In this document: piece after piece, positions 2-9,794 of the stretch
Numbering within the stretch: position 1 is the stretch's first letter
Layout: each line of letters starts with the position of its first letter
DNA from: Candidatus Jordarchaeales archaeon
Lineage (GTDB): Archaea; Asgardarchaeota; Jordiarchaeia; Jordiarchaeales; Freyrarchaeaceae
Assembly: GCA_038889235.1 (NCBI GenBank)
Contig: JAWAHN010000003.1
Span: 143,703-175,702, forward strand
DNA: 32,000 nt
Reading direction: 5' to 3'
The notes under the pieces: generated by a model
The model's database searches: none
Seen by the model: the letters and a program-made list of their open reading frames with translations, nothing else
Told to the model about the DNA's origin: nothing
Position numbers and translations under genes: made by a program

Positions 2-652
2 GTGGCTGACGTTGTGGAAGGACCTTTCTGCATCGATGGCACCACGGCTGACGTTAGGATAGCGGGAGCGAGGTATGTTATGGAGGTTGGCTTGTCGAAC
101 CGTGTCATATACAACTCCATAAGCCCAGACGTGAAGGATGCTGAGCTTCAAGCAATCAAGGACGCTGGAATTAAGTCCGCGGTGCTGCTGCTCCTCAACG
201 TTAGAAATCCGCTTATCAGTGGAAAATTCGAGGTAATCGATGAACTATTGCGAAAGGCTTCGACCGCAGGCGTGGAAAACGTCCTCATAGATACTGCTAC
301 CATAGACATATTAGACCCCGGCCCCGTATCTAAAGCGATTTACTTGGTGAAAGAGAGGTATGGCTACCCGGCAGGTTGCGGCGCGCACAACGCCATCGAC
401 ATATGGCGTAAGCGCACGAAGCTGAGCCCAGGCGTAAAGTTCTCAGGGACCATTCTGGCAAACGTCCTACCCGTGGTCATGGGGGCAGACTTCCTCCTCT
501 ATGGACCCATAGAAAACGCGGCAAAAATATACCCTCCAGTGGCGCTTGCAAATGCGTACGCGGCGTACACTTTGTGGCAGGAGTACGGTGTAAAGCCCCC
601 GGCGGGGAACCACCCGTTTTACAACCTTAGCAAAATAGCTGCCATAGAGTAG
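2..652 (+). CDS. mtrH: MtrH/MtgA-like methyl-corrinoid:tetrahydropterin methyltransferase (5'-truncated by window edge)
   Basis: Motifs PFCIDGT, VIYNSI, LIDTA, YGYPAGCGAHNA and MGADFLLYGPIENA match the C-terminal two-thirds of the MtrH family. The frame is open from the window start. Confidence 0.88.
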   Translation: MADVVEGPFCIDGTTADVRIAGARYVMEVGLSNRVIYNSISPDVKDAELQAIKDAGIKSAVLLLLNVRNPLISGKFEVIDELLRKASTAGVENVLIDTATIDILDPGPVSKAIYLVKERYGYPAGCGAHNAIDIWRKRTKLSPGVKFSGTILANVLPVVMGADFLLYGPIENAAKIYPPVALANAYAAYTLWQEYGVKPPAGNHPFYNLSKIAAIE

Positions 653-666
653 AAACAGCTATCTCT

Positions 667-2415
667 ATGAAGCATCCAACTCTCTTCGAGGGAGTGGACG
701 TGGAGCTGGGTGGCGGGCTAGCTCATGTTCTTTCTAAGGCTTACAGTAGGCTGGATGACGTCAGGAAAACGAACATTGCAGTCGCAGTGGTTATCTCTGA
801 GATTTTGAAGACGATGATTGGTCCTAAAGGAATGAGTAAGATGCTGGTTACTGAGACCGGAGACGTGCTAGTGACTAGTAGTGGCAGGGCTATGCTGGAG
901 AGGCTGAGGGTTTCCCACCCTGTTGCTAGAGGCTTGGTGGATGTTGCTAGGGTCCAGGGCGAGCTCACCGGCGATGGAACGAAAACGGCAGTGGTGGTTG
1001 CAGGGGCGCTGCTGAGGGAGGCGGAGAAGCTCATGGATCAGAAGGTTCACGTTACAACCATAATTGAGGGCTACAGGAAGGCGGCTGTCAAAGCCGTGGA
1101 AGTTCTAGAAAGGCTTGCAATTAGAACGTCTGCTGAAAATGAGGAGGTTATAAGGAGTGTCGCAAGAACGTTCCTTAGAGGACGTTTTAATGAGGACGTC
1201 CAGGACCATGTTGCCGACCTGATGCTAAAAGCGGTCCTTCTCACCCACAAAGGGGGGAAAGATGCATCCATTGAAGATGAAGTCTGCTTCGTCAAAAAAG
1301 CCGGTTCAGACGTGAGCGCTTCCGAATTGATTCGCGGCGTTGTTATATGCAGGGAGAAACCTCACCCGAGGATGCCCAGCAAGATGACTAATGTTAAAGT
1401 TGCACTGCTGAACTGTTCGCTTCAACCCTTCCTGCGTAAAAGCGAAGAGTGGAAGAAGGAGTACTTGATTGGCGAGGAAGGTCGACTGGCGGCTTTCATA
1501 AAAGGTGAAAGCGAGATTTACAGGGAAATTGTGGGGCGGGTTAAGCGAGTGGGTGTGTCCGCCGTCTTTTGCCGCAAAAGAATTAGTGAGAAACTGGTTA
1601 GTTGCTTCGCGAGCGAGGGCCTCCTAGCCTTTGAACTTGTTTCGGAGGAGGACATTGCTAGGCTTACGAGGGCAACCAGGGGGCGGGTGGTTTCGTACGT
1701 AAATGACTTGACAGAGAGAGACTTAGGTGTAGCGAGACTCGTGGAGTTCCGGAAAATCGCTGGTGACGAAGTCTTGGTCGTAGAGGGGGGTGAGGGGTCT
1801 ACCGCTGTTACACTGCTCCTGAGAGGGGGAACTACGGAAGCTGTTGAAGAGCTTGAGAGAATGACGAGAAACGGGCTTAAAGCCTTGTCTCTCGCCCTTA
1901 AGGATGGAAGAATCTTGCCGGGCGGTGGGGCTACAGAGGTCGAGGTCTCTAGGGAGTTGAGAAGTTTTTCGAGAGCATTTACCGGCAAGGAGCAACTAGC
2001 CATAGAGGCTTTTGCAAAAGCCATTGAAACAATTCCGAGGATCATCGCGGAGAACGCTGGACTCAAAGCCAGCGACGTTCTACCGGATCTATACGCTAAG
2101 CACGCCGCCGGCGGCAGGAATTTCGGGGTGGACGTTGTCAAGCGCGAGGTCGTCGACACAGTTAAAGCCGGATTGTTCGACGTGTTTGAAGTTAAGAGAC
2201 GCGCAATTCTAGCAGCCTACGAGTTCGCTACGATGATCCTCCGCGTGGACGACGCTGTTGTCGCGAAGACGAGTGAATTGAGGAAAATGGAGGAAGAGAA
2301 GGTGAAGGAAAGGAAGAGGTTTCTCGACGAGAAAATCAGGAAGGTGCTAGGAAAGGACGAGGAGCTAATGAAAGTGAGCAAAAAACTTACAAGCTTAAGC
2401 CCAGCGTTGGACTAA
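667..2415 (+). CDS. Divergent group II chaperonin (thermosome-like subunit) with degenerate ATPase site
   Basis: Colinear with thermosome subunits: IGPKGMSKML, GDGTKTAVVVAG, ELIRGVV, VALLNC, LLRGGT, PGGGATEVE, IAENAG and LRVDDAV. An alternative GTG start at 700 follows a GAGGGAG SD-like motif. Confidence 0.92.
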   Translation: MKHPTLFEGVDVELGGGLAHVLSKAYSRLDDVRKTNIAVAVVISEILKTMIGPKGMSKMLVTETGDVLVTSSGRAMLERLRVSHPVARGLVDVARVQGELTGDGTKTAVVVAGALLREAEKLMDQKVHVTTIIEGYRKAAVKAVEVLERLAIRTSAENEEVIRSVARTFLRGRFNEDVQDHVADLMLKAVLLTHKGGKDASIEDEVCFVKKAGSDVSASELIRGVVICREKPHPRMPSKMTNVKVALLNCSLQPFLRKSEEWKKEYLIGEEGRLAAFIKGESEIYREIVGRVKRVGVSAVFCRKRISEKLVSCFASEGLLAFELVSEEDIARLTRATRGRVVSYVNDLTERDLGVARLVEFRKIAGDEVLVVEGGEGSTAVTLLLRGGTTEAVEELERMTRNGLKALSLALKDGRILPGGGATEVEVSRELRSFSRAFTGKEQLAIEAFAKAIETIPRIIAENAGLKASDVLPDLYAKHAAGGRNFGVDVVKREVVDTVKAGLFDVFEVKRRAILAAYEFATMILRVDDAVVAKTSELRKMEEEKVKERKRFLDEKIRKVLGKDEELMKVSKKLTSLSPALD

Positions 2416-2440
2416 AAAATGATTTTGGGACTGGGGAACT

Positions 2441-3130
2441 TCACTTTTTACCTGTCGCCGGCTTACCCTTTTTTCGCTCTGCGAGAAGTTTTTTCGCCTT
2501 TTCGAGGGCTATCATCACGTCGGTAGCGTAGTCGTCGGCTCCGCACTCCCTACACCACTCTTCACCAGGGAAAGCACCGCCACCAACCATGTAAATGTAC
2601 TTGTCTCTGAGCCCCCTCTTCTTCAAGGCTTCTCCTAGGAACTTTTGCTGTTGAAGCGTATTGCTCATGAGTGCGGAGGCACCAATAATGTCCGCGTTGA
2701 CTTCTTCAGCCTTCTTTATGAAGTTTTCCACAGGCTGATCTACGCCTATATTGTACACCTTGAAGCCCGCTGCAGTAAACACGGCGGTGACGATGTTAAT
2801 GCCAAGACTGTGAATGTCACCCTCAACCGTCCCTATAACCATCACGCCAAGGGGCTCCGGCCTCTTGTCCTCGGGTATGTATTTGAGAAGTTCGTTCGTC
2901 GCTTTCTCCATGACTTGCGCTGCCAGCATTAGGAAGGGTAACGGGATCTCACCTCTACCAAACTTGTCGCCGACTTCCTTTATCCCGGCTGTAAGCCCCT
3001 TAGTGATGGCTTCTACAGGGTCTATCTGGGCTGATATCGCCTCTTTCACTGCAGCCATGGCGGCTGCCTCGTCGAAGTTTACGACAGCCTCGGCCAGCCT
3101 CTTTAGTATCGCTTCTTTCTTGGCGCTCAT
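2441..3130 (-). CDS. Methyltransferase cognate corrinoid protein (MttC/MtbC/MtaC-like; cap domain plus B12-binding domain)
   Basis: N-terminal four-helix cap (GL..GIKEVGDKF..GEI.LP.LMLAA..M), B12 motif GTVEGDIHSLG (DxHxxG), GASALM, VGGG and GADDY. ATGA overlap with the upstream mttB-like stop at 3127-3130. Confidence 0.93.
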   Translation of the reverse strand: MSAKKEAILKRLAEAVVNFDEAAAMAAVKEAISAQIDPVEAITKGLTAGIKEVGDKFGRGEIPLPFLMLAAQVMEKATNELLKYIPEDKRPEPLGVMVIGTVEGDIHSLGINIVTAVFTAAGFKVYNIGVDQPVENFIKKAEEVNADIIGASALMSNTLQQQKFLGEALKKRGLRDKYIYMVGGGAFPGEEWCRECGADDYATDVMIALEKAKKLLAERKKGKPATGKK

Positions 3131-4632
3131 CCCACCCTCACCCTTAACTTTTCGTTCCCCTCCTTAACTATCGCGTTCATCCGCTCAACAACGTCTTTCG
3201 GCAGCGGTTTCGGCTCGTGCTTCTCCAGCTCCTTCAACTTTTCCCTGCAGAGATCGTAAACCCATGAGCGCGCCCCTTTGTTAAGCCACGTGTCAAAGGC
3301 GTCGGTGTCCAGGCAGAAACCTCTAGGGAACATGTTTAAGCGGTCAAGGTTGTACTTATGTGTCATCCACCTCTCGCCCTTGGCGCCAACCTCTTTTATA
3401 ACGTCGAGGGCAAGGTTTTCAGGGGTCGGGTAGATCTGGTGGAAGGTGGACATAAGGGTCCTACCCATCCTTGCTATCTCGGCGCAGATAGGTATTAACG
3501 CTGGGTCGAAGGCTTCTCCTCCACACTGCTCGAATATGAAGTCCGTCCCAGAAATTATTTGTAGCGTCAGATACCTTGCAAGGTTGAATGCTTGCTGATC
3601 AAGACTCGCGGCGAAAGTTCCACCGTACTGCGCTGTTGGCAGCCCGTAGAGCTCATGCCAAAGCTGGTTCATGGCACACGTCCCCAGCATGAAGTGGGGG
3701 ACGTGCGCTCCTCCCCTTCCCGTCATGGGGTCTAAGCTGAAAACTATGTTGTTCGGGACCACCGCGGCTCCGGGGTCGTGAAACTGCTTGAGAGCGGTCA
3801 GGAAGAGTATTCCCGCATGTGAAATGGCAGTGTTTCCGGCAGCCATAGCCGGCCCCATAAGGGGCGCCGCGGCTGTTACAGCAGGCATAATAGGCCAGTG
3901 GTATTTCACGGAGGCTCGGAACAGCCAGCTGTTAAACCTGTTCAGCTGCAATGTGCCGATATAGTTGTAAACTGTCCAGAAAAGCGGCCTCTTCCTCAGC
4001 TCTTCCTCTCCTCCAGCAACTATGGCAGCCAGCCTCTCCACGTAATCGTACTCCTCTATAGTCGAGACCGTTGTGCAGAGGTGGCCCGCCCACTTAGTGG
4101 TGCCCTGGAACATTGCGTTCATCTTGTTGAGCTCTGATGGTAACCCCTGGTGTCCTTCCTCTGCCGCGTCGTATATGTAGACGTTTACGTCGAAGTCGTC
4201 TATTCCGTCCACTATCTTGGCGGCGTATAGCGTGTCCTTCGAGCTCGCCCTCCTACGATAGTACTTTTTGCTTTTCTCGTCCCAGACGAGGACGTCCGTT
4301 GCGCCGCTCTCCGGGGCCCAGTACTGCCTGCGCGCCGGTCCTTCAACCTCGACATCCCACTCAGGCTCCCTTCCAGCTAGGAGGAAGCTCCTAGGCGCCT
4401 TGCGAACTTGCTCCCTGACAACGTGCTCCGGTACATCTGTGACCAGTTTCGTTTCGTAGTTGACGCTGCACCCCATTTCCTCCGCCATCTTTAGCATTTC
4501 TTTGTCGTCTATGAAGACGCCGACATCCTTCAGTATCTTGTAAGCCGCGTTGTCAATTATTTCCAGCTCCTCCCGGTCCAGCACCCTCCATAGGCGACTT
4601 TTAGGCGGTAAAGGAACACCTGTTTTGGGCAA
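3127..4632 (-). CDS. mttB: MttB-superfamily (trimethylamine methyltransferase family) methyltransferase without pyrrolysine
   Basis: The N-terminus (LDREELEIIDNAAYKILKDVGV...APRSFLLAGREP) and the GLPT...DQQA segment are typical of the family. There is no in-frame TAG. TTG start at 4632 preceded by GGTGAGGAGGG. Coupled to the corrinoid gene. Confidence 0.85.
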   Translation of the reverse strand: MPKTGVPLPPKSRLWRVLDREELEIIDNAAYKILKDVGVFIDDKEMLKMAEEMGCSVNYETKLVTDVPEHVVREQVRKAPRSFLLAGREPEWDVEVEGPARRQYWAPESGATDVLVWDEKSKKYYRRRASSKDTLYAAKIVDGIDDFDVNVYIYDAAEEGHQGLPSELNKMNAMFQGTTKWAGHLCTTVSTIEEYDYVERLAAIVAGGEEELRKRPLFWTVYNYIGTLQLNRFNSWLFRASVKYHWPIMPAVTAAAPLMGPAMAAGNTAISHAGILFLTALKQFHDPGAAVVPNNIVFSLDPMTGRGGAHVPHFMLGTCAMNQLWHELYGLPTAQYGGTFAASLDQQAFNLARYLTLQIISGTDFIFEQCGGEAFDPALIPICAEIARMGRTLMSTFHQIYPTPENLALDVIKEVGAKGERWMTHKYNLDRLNMFPRGFCLDTDAFDTWLNKGARSWVYDLCREKLKELEKHEPKPLPKDVVERMNAIVKEGNEKLRVRVG

Positions 4633-4660
4633 CCCTCCTCACCCACCAATTTTTTGGTTT

Positions 4661-4680
4661 TTTAAGTATAAAATAATTTG
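4661..4680 (-). promoter_or_regulatory. Probable TATA box of the mttB-corrinoid operon, within the divergent mttB/RACo control region
   Basis: The minus strand reads caaattaTTTTATACttaaa, about 30-40 nt upstream of the SD and TTG. Confidence 0.4.
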
Positions 4681-4829
4681 TTTCACGAAGTTACAACATA
4701 GTGATTCATGTTGGTAGCTTTGGCCGAGAAATAACGCAACTTTATGCATAAACGTCCGTTTTACTCGAACCTACTCTTAAAAAAGGATAAGGTTGAAATC
4801 ACTATGTATAGTGGACGCCGGTGAAGTGG

Positions 4830-6755
4830 ATGAGCGGAGATGTAACCGTTGTTTTTCAGCCTGAAGGAAAGCGTGTCACAGTGAAGCCTGGGGGGAACCT
4901 GCTGGAGATAGCTAAGCTTGTAGGCGTAGACATCACCTCGGTGTGTGGTGGTAGAGGGACTTGTGGCAAGTGTAAGGTGGTGATCGAGGAGAACAGGGGG
5001 AATGTTTCCCCGCTGACTGCAAAGGAGGGGAAAATCCTGTCCCCCAGCGAGGTTGCTAAAGGGTATAGGCTGGCATGTTGCACGTTCGTTGGTGGCCAAG
5101 TCGTCGTTAAGGTGCCCGAGGAAAGTAGGACGGGGCGGCAGCGGCTTCAAGTTGAGGGAGTAGAAACACCTGTGGCTTTGAATCCACCTGTGTGCAAATA
5201 CTTTTTGAAGCTGCCTAAGCCGTCCCTCAGCGATCCTAAGCCTGACGCCGAGATACTACTCGGCGAGCTGAGACGCCAGGGTGTGGGACGAGATGTGGAA
5301 ATAGACTTTCACGTGCTGCAGACTTTGCCGGTAGCTCTCAGGAAGAAAGATTGGAGTGTAACTGTCGTCATGTGGAATGGCAGGGTCATAGGTGTGGAGC
5401 CCGGTGATACGACTAGGAGAGCGTTCGGCTACGCTGTCGATATAGGGACGACGAAGCTTGCCGGTTACTTGCTCGACCTCTTAACCGGGAAGGTTGTCGC
5501 CGTGGAGTCAATGATGAACCCGCAGATATCTTACGGCGAGGACGTCATAGCCAGGATCACGTACGCGTCTAAGGGGTTAAGGGAGCAGAGGAGACTTCAA
5601 AAAGTTGTCATAAGCGCCATAAACAAGATGCTCGACTCGCTCCTTAATAAGACTGGCGTGAAGAGGGGGGAGGTTTACGAGATGGTTGCCGTTGGCAACA
5701 CCGCAATGCACCACCTCGCTCTGGGCATATGTCCAAAGTATTTAGCCCTGTCACCCTATACGCCAGCCAACAGGAGGGGGGTAAACGTCGCCGCCCGCAA
5801 TCTCGGTGTGAGGATAAACCCGAATGGTAACGTCTACTTTCTCCCCATTATAGGTGGCTTCGTGGGCGCTGACACCATGGGCGTACTTTTAGCGACGGGA
5901 ATGTACAAAAGGGATGAAATGTGCCTAGCGATAGATATTGGGACCAATACGGAAGTCCTTTTGGGAAACAAGGACGAAATATTGGCGTGCTCCTGTGCGT
6001 CGGGCCCGGCTTTTGAGGGGGCACACATAAAACACGGAATGAGGGCGGCCACTGGCGCCATCGAGAAGATAAAGATAGATGAGAAGTTTGAAGTTAAATA
6101 TGAGACCATAGACGGCGAGAAGCCTCGCGGGATATGCGGCTCAGCTATGATAGATTTTCTGGCGGAAGCGCTAAAGGCGGGGTTAATTGACTTCACCGGC
6201 GTTTTCAATAGGGAAATAAGCTCGGACAGGCTGCGCAGCGGGGAAAGAGGACTTGAATTCGTAGTGGCATGGGGAGAGGAAACGTTTACAGGTGAGGACA
6301 TAGTTATAACTCAAAATGACATTAAGGAGATCTTGCTGGCTAAAGCAGCGATACACACGGGGATCAGCATCCTTATGAAGAAGAAGGGTTTAACTGAGAG
6401 GGACATCGACGTCTTCTTCGTCGCCGGAGCATTCGGCTCATACATAAACCCGGAGAACGCTAGGATAATAGGAATGTACCCCGAGCTGCCGTTGGAGAGA
6501 GTACGCGTAGTGGGTAATGCTGCCGGTACTGGTGCTCGCATGGCCCTCTGTTCCAGAGACGTAAGGGAGACCGCCGAAACCCTTGTAGGAAAGGTGAAAT
6601 ATGTTGAGCTCGCCGCGGAGGCGGGCTTTCAAGCGGAGTTCCTTAACTCGTACTTCCTGCCTCACGCTGACCTCTCAAGATATCCTGAAACAAGTGATCT
6701 TCTCAGAAAGCTGGGTAGATACCCCAAAAGGCCTCCAGTATGCTTCCCAACCTGA
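4830..6755 (+). CDS. RACo/DUF4445 (ASKHA) ATP-dependent reductive activator of corrinoid proteins with N-terminal [2Fe-2S] domain
   Basis: N-terminal CGGRGTCGKC...RLAC ferredoxin domain, ASKHA motifs AVDIGTT and IDIGTNTE, plus YGEDVIARI, CASGPAFEG and AGAFGSY. ATG at 4830 follows GGTGA (the ORF track starts at GTG 4821). Confidence 0.92.
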   Translation: MSGDVTVVFQPEGKRVTVKPGGNLLEIAKLVGVDITSVCGGRGTCGKCKVVIEENRGNVSPLTAKEGKILSPSEVAKGYRLACCTFVGGQVVVKVPEESRTGRQRLQVEGVETPVALNPPVCKYFLKLPKPSLSDPKPDAEILLGELRRQGVGRDVEIDFHVLQTLPVALRKKDWSVTVVMWNGRVIGVEPGDTTRRAFGYAVDIGTTKLAGYLLDLLTGKVVAVESMMNPQISYGEDVIARITYASKGLREQRRLQKVVISAINKMLDSLLNKTGVKRGEVYEMVAVGNTAMHHLALGICPKYLALSPYTPANRRGVNVAARNLGVRINPNGNVYFLPIIGGFVGADTMGVLLATGMYKRDEMCLAIDIGTNTEVLLGNKDEILACSCASGPAFEGAHIKHGMRAATGAIEKIKIDEKFEVKYETIDGEKPRGICGSAMIDFLAEALKAGLIDFTGVFNREISSDRLRSGERGLEFVVAWGEETFTGEDIVITQNDIKEILLAKAAIHTGISILMKKKGLTERDIDVFFVAGAFGSYINPENARIIGMYPELPLERVRVVGNAAGTGARMALCSRDVRETAETLVGKVKYVELAAEAGFQAEFLNSYFLPHADLSRYPETSDLLRKLGRYPKRPPVCFPT

Positions 6756-6846: not shown

Positions 6847-7452
6847 TTGGAGGTGGTTAGCGATAGGCTGAGGAGGGTTGTAGAGTTCCTTCAGACTGTT
6901 CAAGGTGTGAGGAAAGTAATAGTTCTAGGTAACGTTGAGCGTGAAGCCCTTCTTCAAGCCGAGTTAAGGGGCGAGAAAAGCGTCATAGGAGGGCAGGGGT
7001 TCAATGAAGGGGTGAGGGAAGCACTTTCCAGGGAGTTTGTTGTCGCATGCTCCACTGATAAACGCTTTAAGTGGCCTAAGGGGCCTTACGTCGTCCTAAA
7101 GAGCGGGGACACTGTTGTCGGCTTCATAACGGATGACGTTGAAAACATAAAGCGACAGTGTAACGAAGAGACTTACGTTTTCGGGGGTAGCTTGATACTC
7201 TTCCCAGACAGAATTAGGAAGTTGAAGGATAAGGAGAAGGCCACGATTTTCGTCTATAAGGGGTTTAAAATGGAGGCGCTTGAGGCAGAAGCGGATGTGA
7301 AGGACGCGGTTTTAGCTTTCTGCACGCGGGCCGGTGACGCGTATCTAAAAAGGCTGCTTGGTGAAAGTGAAGATGCGAGCATCGGGACAATAGTAGTAGG
7401 TTTTAACCTTGAAAAAAGAGGAGAGGACAAAGAGTTGGAGGGAAAGTGTTAG
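6847..7452 (+). CDS. Hypothetical protein (about 200 aa) downstream of RACo
   Basis: Long ORF with gene-like composition, 91 bp after RACo on the same strand. TTG 6847 or GTG 6853 start with a GGTGA/GGAGG SD. No function recognised. Confidence 0.75.
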   Translation: MEVVSDRLRRVVEFLQTVQGVRKVIVLGNVEREALLQAELRGEKSVIGGQGFNEGVREALSREFVVACSTDKRFKWPKGPYVVLKSGDTVVGFITDDVENIKRQCNEETYVFGGSLILFPDRIRKLKDKEKATIFVYKGFKMEALEAEADVKDAVLAFCTRAGDAYLKRLLGESEDASIGTIVVGFNLEKRGEDKELEGKC

Positions 7453-8747: not shown

Positions 8748-9794
8748 CTACCCCTGGAAGGCTGGAGCTATTTTCTCCATATATGTTTTAAGCACGTACT
8801 TTGGATCTGGCCCGATGTTTATGAGGAGGAAGTGTCTGACGCCAGCTTTCCTGAACTCCTCTATCTTTTCTATGCAGTCTTTCGGTGTTCCGACTATGAA
8901 GAAGTCTGTGAGCATTTCGTCTGTAACTTGCTCTGAGAGTTTAACCAGTTGCGTGAGCATTTCGTTTTCCACAAGCAACTCCTCGAAGTAATACCTCTTG
9001 GAGAACTCCTCGGGGATGTTTAAAGTGTACCCTGCCTGCTCGACTTTCTCCACGGTTGATATCAGCATTCCTTTGTAGAGGCGGGCCCTTTCCAAGGCCT
9101 TCTCGTAGCTTTCGTCAACCGCCGTGTACACTTGGAGAGAAGTGTCTATGTCTCTTATGCTCCGGCCAGCCCTCTCCGCCCCCCTCTTAACATCCTCCAA
9201 GTTTTCCCTGTACGTTTTCGGCGTCTCGGTTATGGGCATCCACCCCTCGCAAAGCTCCCCGGCGAGCTCCCTCGTCTTTGGACCATTTGCACCGAGGTAT
9301 ATCGGTATGGTCTTCTGGACAGGTGTGATCTGGAGGAAGGCGTTCCTAAACTTGAAGTACGTTCCATTGTAGGAGAACTTCTCACCTGACCAAAGCTTCT
9401 TCAGAACCTCCACACCTTCTCTAAGTCTCGTGTAAGGGCGCCCCCATTCTATGCCGAAAGGTTTAATGTTCATCGCCTCTCCCGCTCCCAAGCCAAGGAA
9501 GGCCCTACCACCAGACAAATGGTCGATAGTAGCCATAACTTGAGCGAGGACGGACGGGTGATACCTTACCACGTCTGAAACTCCGGTTCCAAGTCTCACC
9601 CTCTTAGTTGTCATCGAGAGCGCCGACATAAGGCTCAGTGCGTTCGGCGTGAAGCCGGGAGGCACCATCAGCGTGTGATCCGGGATAATCAGCGAGAAGT
9701 AGCCTGCCTCGTCAATCATCCCAGCGATTTTCAAAATCTTGTCCATAGGAGGTAGAGGAGGAGGCAAAAGCATACCGAACTTCACTTCAGACAA
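8748..9794 (-). CDS. Luciferase-like (LLM) oxidoreductase, probably F420-dependent
   Basis: IPDH, LGTGV...RYHP..LAQ..AT.D.LSGGR..LG.GAGE..N and IPIYLGANGPK. TTG start with GGAGGGG SD. Confidence 0.88.
   Translation of the reverse strand: MSEVKFGMLLPPPLPPMDKILKIAGMIDEAGYFSLIIPDHTLMVPPGFTPNALSLMSALSMTTKRVRLGTGVSDVVRYHPSVLAQVMATIDHLSGGRAFLGLGAGEAMNIKPFGIEWGRPYTRLREGVEVLKKLWSGEKFSYNGTYFKFRNAFLQITPVQKTIPIYLGANGPKTRELAGELCEGWMPITETPKTYRENLEDVKRGAERAGRSIRDIDTSLQVYTAVDESYEKALERARLYKGMLISTVEKVEQAGYTLNIPEEFSKRYYFEELLVENEMLTQLVKLSEQVTDEMLTDFFIVGTPKDCIEKIEEFRKAGVRHFLLINIGPDPKYVLKTYMEKIAPAFQG

Follow-up and report, generated by a model that had tools for sequence, protein, structure and literature searches.

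Archaeal thermosomes are viewed as general-purpose folding machines, which raises the question of why a gene for a thermosome-like protein should lie in the middle of a corrinoid-dependent methyltransferase cluster. Such an arrangement is found at the beginning of a stretch of 32,000 nucleotides (nt) from contig JAWAHN010000003.1 of Candidatus Jordarchaeales archaeon, hereafter called the window, whose host is a Jordarchaeia (Asgard) archaeon with a genome of 2.14 Mb in 8 contigs (95% complete). A divergent group II chaperonin of a methyltransferase-linked clade is encoded at positions 700 to 2415 of the + strand (alternative start ATG 667), between genes for an MtrH-like methyltransferase and a corrinoid protein. 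A preliminary description of this DNA had suggested that the gene may encode a chaperone dedicated to the methyl-transfer pathway. Comparative genomics, namely a neighbourhood census and the co-occurrence with MttB, supports that reading, while chaperone activity and clients are what we infer from it. We consider a chaperonin or assembly factor dedicated to the MttB–corrinoid system the probable answer, with a probability of about 0.55.

The encoded protein is a group II chaperonin by its predicted fold. The PF00118 (Cpn60_TCP1) match reached 468 bits and covered profile positions 1–489 of 490, which corresponds to the full-length domain. An AlphaFold2 model with 22 relatives showed the whole chaperonin fold (pLDDT 80), and the best matches in the PDB were thermosomes. 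As in the archaeal thermosomes (Mm-cpn, Thermococcus, and Thermoplasma alpha/beta; 3j3x, 1q3r, and 1a6d), the full-length Cpn60_TCP1 protein comprises equatorial, intermediate, and apical domains. A segment corresponding to the helical protrusion (the built-in lid of the apical domain) was present and aligned, with a helix predicted at residues 271–295, but the lid base differs (see below) and residues 257–264 were modelled with low confidence. Identity to canonical thermosome subunits was 38–41%. Despite the shared fold, the sequence departs from that of working thermosomes on three counts: the GDGTT[TS] loop, the catalytic Asp pair, and the NCBIfam score, as the match to TIGR02339 (thermosome_arch) stayed at 476.6 bits under the curated cut-off of 671, and the looser thermosome_alpha model was just passed (477.5 vs a cut-off of 450).

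The phosphate loop reads GDGTKT in place of GDGTT[TS] and was invariant across the 22-row clade alignment, and the sensing-loop Lys of thermosomes is exchanged for Arg. Both catalytic Asp residues are replaced: in a gap-free HMMER alignment to 3j3x_A, D60 and D386 of Mm-cpn (the equivalents of GroEL D52 and D398) correspond to S72 and N402. D386 is the residue altered in the PDB entry 'Lidless D386A Mm-cpn variant'. The window protein may still bind ATP and should hardly hydrolyse it; without the two catalytic Asp residues, it cannot on its own work as a normal folding cage that cycles with ATP. Two further differences from thermosomes concern potential contact regions: the lid base contains three inserted residues as well as a conserved motif of its own (SLDPF.RK..DW.KEY), and a charged, helical, and conserved C-terminal tail of ~50 residues (about 536–582 of the 582-aa form) replaces the Gly/Met-rich tail. 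Finally, the window gene differs from thermosome genes in its position inside a corrinoid methyltransferase cluster.

In phylogenetic trees, the chaperonin belonged to a distinct clade (support 100) that included none of the canonical thermosomes sampled (Euryarchaeota, TACK, and Asgard) and was separate from the other divergent Freyarchaeum paralogs. A clade profile separated the members (850–1005 bits) from every other chaperonin (≤643 bits) in 400 Asgard genomes, and the members thus recognized came from the class Jordarchaeia only. The next-best profile match with 643 bits (G036) was rejected as a member, being a canonical subunit with GDGTTT and TNDGATIL. The clade is marked by GDGTKT, FC(R/Q)KR(I/V)S, the altered lid base, and the conserved charged tail of ~50 residues; GDGTKT as a clade-defining mark in its own right was discarded because GDGxKx is also present in divergent paralogs outside the clade. 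When 1.84 billion cluster representatives were searched with a profile, ~5 clusters showed FC(R/Q)KR and the charged tail. Five species on the Thermoproteota side, found among 401 genomes sampled from the GTDB phylum to which a Bathyarchaeia metagenome-assembled genome belongs, form a sister group of the clade. An offshoot from a different Asgard family (G141), which is 28% identical to the window protein and has GDGTKS and a charged tail, also grouped with the clade (support 100) on the long branch of a fast-evolving sequence. On another contig, the window's genome carries two thermosome genes of the canonical type (681 and 667 Pfam bits, with GDGTTT and TNDGATIL), in agreement with the initial view that the chaperonin gene is placed away from a housekeeping locus. 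A contig scan with the chaperonin as single query returned only canonical thermosomes of ≤40% identity.

A first line of evidence for a dedicated role comes from the gene neighbourhoods. The proposed recurrent linkage of this clade to corrinoid methyltransferase genes was borne out: in 12 of 16 species-level contexts, the chaperonin gene lies beside genes for MttB, corrinoid proteins, the activators RACo or RamA, or the second methyltransferase of such systems (MT2). This census leaves out the metagenomic clade members P0005–P0020, P0022, and P0133. The linked contexts span two archaeal phyla, five gene orders, and two MT2 types (MtrH and URO-D). With Cpn for the chaperonin and Corr for the corrinoid protein, the order MtrH-Cpn-Corr-MttB-RACo occurs in four congeners, including G001–G003 with the window's arrangement. 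The closed Freyarchaeum genome G006 has Cpn-Corr-MttB-RACo in the window's order and orientation, and its module is preceded by two genes for 3-hydroxyacyl-CoA dehydrogenases (HCDH) and a DUF4139 gene. The other three orders are UROD(MT2)-Cpn-RACo-MttB-Corr on the metagenome contig L078, MttB-Corr-SCP2-like-UROD-MoxR(AAA_5)-VWA-Corr2-Cpn-(MttB2)-RamA in all five Thermoproteota-side species (5/5), and MttB-Corr-SCP2-Cpn-DHH in the Asgard genome G141 with its 28% identical copy.

A metagenome scan gave a concordant picture, as the clade members among its loci (3 of 80) were all within corrinoid clusters; two of these three contigs belong to two of the five Thermoproteota-side species. Canonical thermosomes dominated the scan because one search pattern was generic. 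As a control, we analyzed 91 canonical thermosome loci (1.0 Mb) from the same scans, and none of them contained a gene for a corrinoid protein, MttB, or URO-D; a RACo-like match occurred once among the 91. The linkage between chaperonin and methyltransferase genes is therefore far above chance. Judged by genome comparison, a linkage that is kept through rearrangements and down to 28% identity, under purifying selection (see below), is the usual signature of functional coupling.

The second line of evidence is co-occurrence with MttB. Among the 11 Jordarchaeia genomes, the sole genome without the chaperonin (G004, 94% complete) also had no MttB homolog. All five Thermoproteota-side hosts belong to one order, and in the 33 genomes of this order that were covered, MttB-family genes were found only in the five chaperonin-bearing genomes and in G802. 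The latter is a bin of 0.7 Mb in which the cluster contig breaks off inside the VWA gene, shortly before the position expected for Corr2-Cpn. Two genomes (G548 and G508) have MoxR-VWA(-Corr) and lack both MttB and the chaperonin. As these MoxR-VWA relatives without MttB have no chaperonin, the tie seems to be with MttB and not with corrinoid proteins generally. All chaperonin-bearing genomes in which MttB could be sought have MttB; in G010 (87% complete), the only MttB found was a 29% identical paralog. In the window's genome, we found a single MttB homolog, which is the one encoded in the module at 3127 to 4632.

Several observations weigh against a dedicated role and have to be set beside this evidence. 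The preliminary description stated that orthologs in unrelated contexts would refute its proposal, and such orthologs do exist: in four Freyarchaeum species (G007–G010), the chaperonin is found in the order HCDH-HCDH-Cpn-ACAD (ACAD, acyl-CoA dehydrogenase), away from the module, and a compact MttB-Corr-RACo-MtrH operon without the chaperonin lies on another contig. With the other 12 of the 16 contexts linked, these exceptions indicate that the link is strong and not obligatory. Furthermore, a wide distribution of MttB-like genes among other Asgard lineages has been reported (PMC11291895), and the clade was absent from all other Asgard genomes sampled in the 400-genome profile search. The chaperonin is therefore accessory rather than required, as many MttB-bearing archaea do without it. 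Related genomes also do not count as independent cases, and the pattern may rest on ~5 ancestral events, partly by whole-island transfer. Finally, the catalytic Asp residues vary in the clade: both are lost in the window's genus, and both are kept in several members, including Freyarchaeum deiterrae and L078, which by comparison of the sequences argues against a uniform ATP-driven folding function.

Of the alternatives, the one that survives best, although we consider it rather unlikely, is that the protein is a general third thermosome subunit in the housekeeping ring, comparable to Sulfolobus gamma or Haloferax CCT3, and that the genes are linked only because they are regulated together or were transferred jointly as part of a metabolic island. 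Thermosomes built from several subunits, some of them dispensable, are known, and a general subunit would be compatible with the position of the gene apart from the module in the four Freyarchaeum species and with the presence of GDGxKx in other divergent paralogs that have no charged tail. Also, the Thermoproteota-side members nest in the clade, which suggests whole-island transfer and would fit this alternative. However, the linkage has outlasted five gene orders, a sequence divergence of 28–50%, and the exchange of the MT2 type (MtrH vs URO-D), and a gene that was merely carried along would be expected to have moved away from the module or disappeared. The family is moreover missing from genomes without MttB, and the linkage was never seen for canonical subunits (0/91 loci).

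It is a good deal less probable that the protein is no longer a chaperone at all and now serves as a ring-shaped scaffold or nucleotide-sensing regulator that organizes or gates a complex of the first methyltransferase (MT1), corrinoid protein, MT2, and activase, a role for which we know of no precedent. The loss of both catalytic Asp residues in the window's genus, and often elsewhere in the clade, would agree with such a function, as would the conserved charged helical tail, which is absent from folding-active thermosomes, and the presence of other remodelers, namely MoxR-VWA and RamA, in the Thermoproteota-side clusters. Yet hydrolysis is not lost clade-wide, since several members keep both Asp residues together with a normal GGGAxE region, and the entire equatorial, intermediate, and apical architecture is kept.

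Within the genus, the chaperonin gene changes 2–5 times faster than its neighbours and the canonical thermosomes, with a nonsynonymous divergence (dN) of 0.16–0.32 in comparison to 0.03–0.04 for MttB and 0.07 for canonical thermosomes. The dN/dS ratio of about 0.08–0.12, which is rough because the synonymous divergence (dS) is saturated, indicates that the gene is still under purifying selection. A decaying duplicate without function, as the fast evolution (dN of the neighbours and canonical thermosomes together 0.03–0.07) and the lost catalytic residues might imply, is very improbable, because the frames are intact in every genome and both the tail and the motifs specific to the clade have been conserved in two phyla; with the dN/dS of about 0.1 and this conservation, we rejected the pseudogene interpretation.

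We thus return to the pathway-dedicated chaperonin, for which the following mode of action can be envisaged. The protein would be a specialized group II paralog from a rare family whose genes are inherited together with MttB-type corrinoid methyltransferase systems and lie beside them. Its clients would be the 55-kDa TIM-barrel protein MttB and/or the corrinoid protein ahead of cobamide loading, and it could act either as a thermosome-like ring of its own or as a specialized subunit within the housekeeping ThsA/ThsB ring. Clients would be recognized via the diverged lid base and the conserved charged helical tail. In the window's genus, the protein might function as a holdase or adaptor, or partner subunits might supply the cycling. 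In this scheme, the oligomeric state, the binding of ATP, the identity of the clients, and joint transcription with mtrH are predictions made from sequence.

In the papers searched, we found no description of such a methyltransferase-linked thermosome or chaperonin in relation to corrinoid proteins, MttB, Asgard archaea, Bathyarchaeia, or GDGTKT. The module itself (MttB-like, MtbC-like, and MtrH) has been published for Freyarchaeia and Atabeyarchaeia without mention of the chaperonin (PMC11291895). We would give even odds to a more far-reaching proposal, namely that the clade represents an undescribed family of group II chaperonin-like proteins that is an integral accessory of a class of archaeal MttB-type systems and the first pathway-dedicated thermosome, which would occur in Asgard archaea, have spread with the cluster to another phylum, and act like the BBS proteins as an often hydrolysis-dead deliverer or assembler of one specific set of clients. 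If true, a thermosome paralog would be tied to one metabolic module in Asgard relatives of eukaryotes, and such specialization would have arisen in archaea. The locus would then also offer a simple one-operon system with few candidate clients for studying how a diverged and partly ATPase-dead subunit recognizes its substrates. MttB-type enzymes of uncultured archaea may be hard to express, and if they need such a helper, co-expression could make them assayable.

Client-specialized paralogs of group II chaperonins are known mainly from eukaryotes, as CCT subunits and BBS proteins. BBS6/MKKS, BBS10, and BBS12 are diverged group II paralogs with degenerate ATPase motifs that assemble one complex together with CCT, and they are the closest functional parallel to the window protein, as a diverged paralog serves one specific complex rather than general folding. 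Unlike the window gene, the BBS proteins are eukaryotic, have the BBSome as client, and have no operon context. No direct descent from or to BBS or CCT proteins is implied, because the window protein scored 477 bits with the NCBIfam thermosome model vs ≤302 bits with any CCT subunit. A looser parallel is provided by pathway-associated GroEL paralogs of bacteria, such as the nif-linked groESL of rhizobia and mycobacterial GroEL1, and by the bacterial thermosome-like 'group III' chaperonins that are encoded in dnaK operons: in these cases, a specific pathway or chaperone operon contains an additional chaperonin gene or is co-regulated with one. They differ in being group I chaperonins or linked to Hsp70, and to our knowledge they keep their catalytic residues and none is linked to corrinoid enzymes.

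With the helpers of corrinoid enzymes (RACo/RamA, MeaB-type G-protein chaperones, and MoxR-VWA), the chaperonin shares the position of an accessory protein beside B12 enzymes. These helpers are ATP- or GTP-dependent, and their chemistry is known (Co(II) reduction, cofactor delivery). Their folds are unrelated to that of the chaperonin, which would add a folding or assembly-type function. RACo or RamA occurred in every cluster seen, and MoxR-VWA occurred in the Thermoproteota-side clusters.

The distances that had been noted between the genes are exact: the MtrH stop at 652 is separated by 14 nt from ATG 667 and by 47 nt from GTG 700, and 25 nt lie between the chaperonin stop at 2415 and the convergent corrinoid gene that ends at 2441. 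In a DNA alignment with two congeners, the ATG of the congeners falls on GTG 700 of the window, and this codon is preceded by the purine-rich, Shine–Dalgarno-like sequence GAGGGAG at 688–694, a purine-rich box that is conserved in the congeners. Position 700 is therefore the likelier start, which gives a gap of 47 nt. The spacer between the MtrH-like gene and the chaperonin gene (653 to 699, + strand) contains this box and no AT-rich box like that in the divergent region at 4633–4820, so that co-transcription of the chaperonin with mtrH appears likely from the layout of the genes. In the congeners, the same spacer is 55–60 nt long, with T-rich tracts and the conserved purine-rich box before the ATG. 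The convergent 25-nt spacer at 2416 to 2440 contains short A and T runs (A6 and T4) at which transcripts arriving from either side could terminate.

The module comprises the following further genes. The MtrH-like methyl-corrinoid:pterin methyltransferase (MT2) is represented in the window by the 3' two-thirds of its gene (2 to 652, + strand; PF02007 MtrH, 155 bits). The full gene starts 284 nt upstream of the window and encodes 311 aa (L004 15420–16355; PF02007, 276 bits), and the matches of the protein to the NCBIfam MtrH family and to an MtgA-like model were both under the cut-off. The corrinoid (B12-binding) protein at 2441 to 3130 on the − strand is MtbC/MtgC-like (PF02310 and PF02607), and its DxHxxG motif is DIHSLG at residues 105–110. 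On the same strand, positions 3127 to 4632 encode the MttB-superfamily methyltransferase (MT1; PF06253, 120 bits), which is of the non-pyrrolysine type, as the gene has no in-frame stop. The MttB ortholog of congener G002 (L031:6347-7845, G002:C75) is in two overlapping pieces (residues 1–187 and 175–500) in separate frames of 202 and 332 aa, which could be due to a frameshift, an assembly error, or a broken gene. On the + strand, positions 4821 to 6755 encode a RACo-type reductive activator of corrinoid proteins with a 2Fe-2S domain and an ASKHA ATPase domain (PF14574, PF17651, PF17650, and PF00111). The intergenic region between the divergent MttB and RACo genes (4633 to 4820) is AT-rich and has clear TATA-like boxes, and the promoters of MttB-Corr and of RACo are probably located there.

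Downstream of RACo, a conserved hypothetical protein of 201 aa is encoded at 6847 to 7452 (+ strand), and its homologs adjoin the module elsewhere (L032, L038, L039, L041, and L078; Jordarchaeia, Freyarchaeum, and contig L078). A second hypothetical protein of 238 aa flanks the module in Jordarchaeia (L004:14493-15209, + strand). Both recur near the module in Freyarchaeum (L039 and L041), and the 201-aa protein is also found on L078; Pfam searches assigned neither to a family, and neither has predicted transmembrane segments. About 2 kb past RACo, at 8748 to 9794 on the − strand, there is a gene for an F420-dependent luciferase-like oxidoreductase (PF00296), whose top NCBIfam match was methylene-tetrahydromethanopterin reductase (Mer; TIGR03555 F420_mer) with 190 bits, below the cut-off of 349. 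This Mer-like protein could process methyl-tetrahydromethanopterin made by the MtrH-like enzyme, although its membership in the system is uncertain. The module lies at the edge of a dense region of acyl-CoA metabolism (window 7454–28749) that comprises two 3-hydroxyacyl-CoA dehydrogenases, an acyl-CoA dehydrogenase, an enoyl-CoA hydratase, and thiolases, and further a ChsH2-OB fused ketoacyl-synthase-III-like gene, PEPCK, and Sir2. The HCDH and ACAD of this region showed weak likeness to carnitine-pathway enzymes in NCBIfam, all under the cut-off, and HCDH and ACAD genes flank the chaperonin in Freyarchaeum too.

The clusters of other hosts contain two additional elements. In the Thermoproteota-side clusters and in the Asgard genome G141, MttB-Corr is immediately followed by a gene for a small SCP2-like protein of 111–134 aa (L123:3820-4224, + strand; L174:3252-3587, − strand; a homolog at L078:11069-11428, − strand). 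The PF02036 match had E=4.8e-8 in G141 and was weak in L123, and the protein might serve these systems by carrying a substrate or cofactor. The second element is a MoxR-type AAA_5 ATPase with a VWA protein, encoded between the URO-D-type MT2 and the second corrinoid protein (L165–L169; e.g., L168:6507-8374), a pairing that recalls cofactor-insertion machines of the CobS/CobT and CoxD/CoxE type.

Freyarchaeum genomes are in general rich in chaperonin-like sequences, with 7–9 matches per genome. In Freyarchaeum deiterrae, an open frame of 1087 aa (L044:4504-7767, + strand, corresponding to G006:C1 about 3110503-3113766) comprises two tandem chaperonin units in a head-to-tail fusion. The fused double chaperonin was also seen in G008–G010, with frames of 1072–1083 aa and some matches that cross a TGA or TAA, and the same architecture was present in the cluster representatives P0129 and P0131 (1057 and 1047 aa, respectively).

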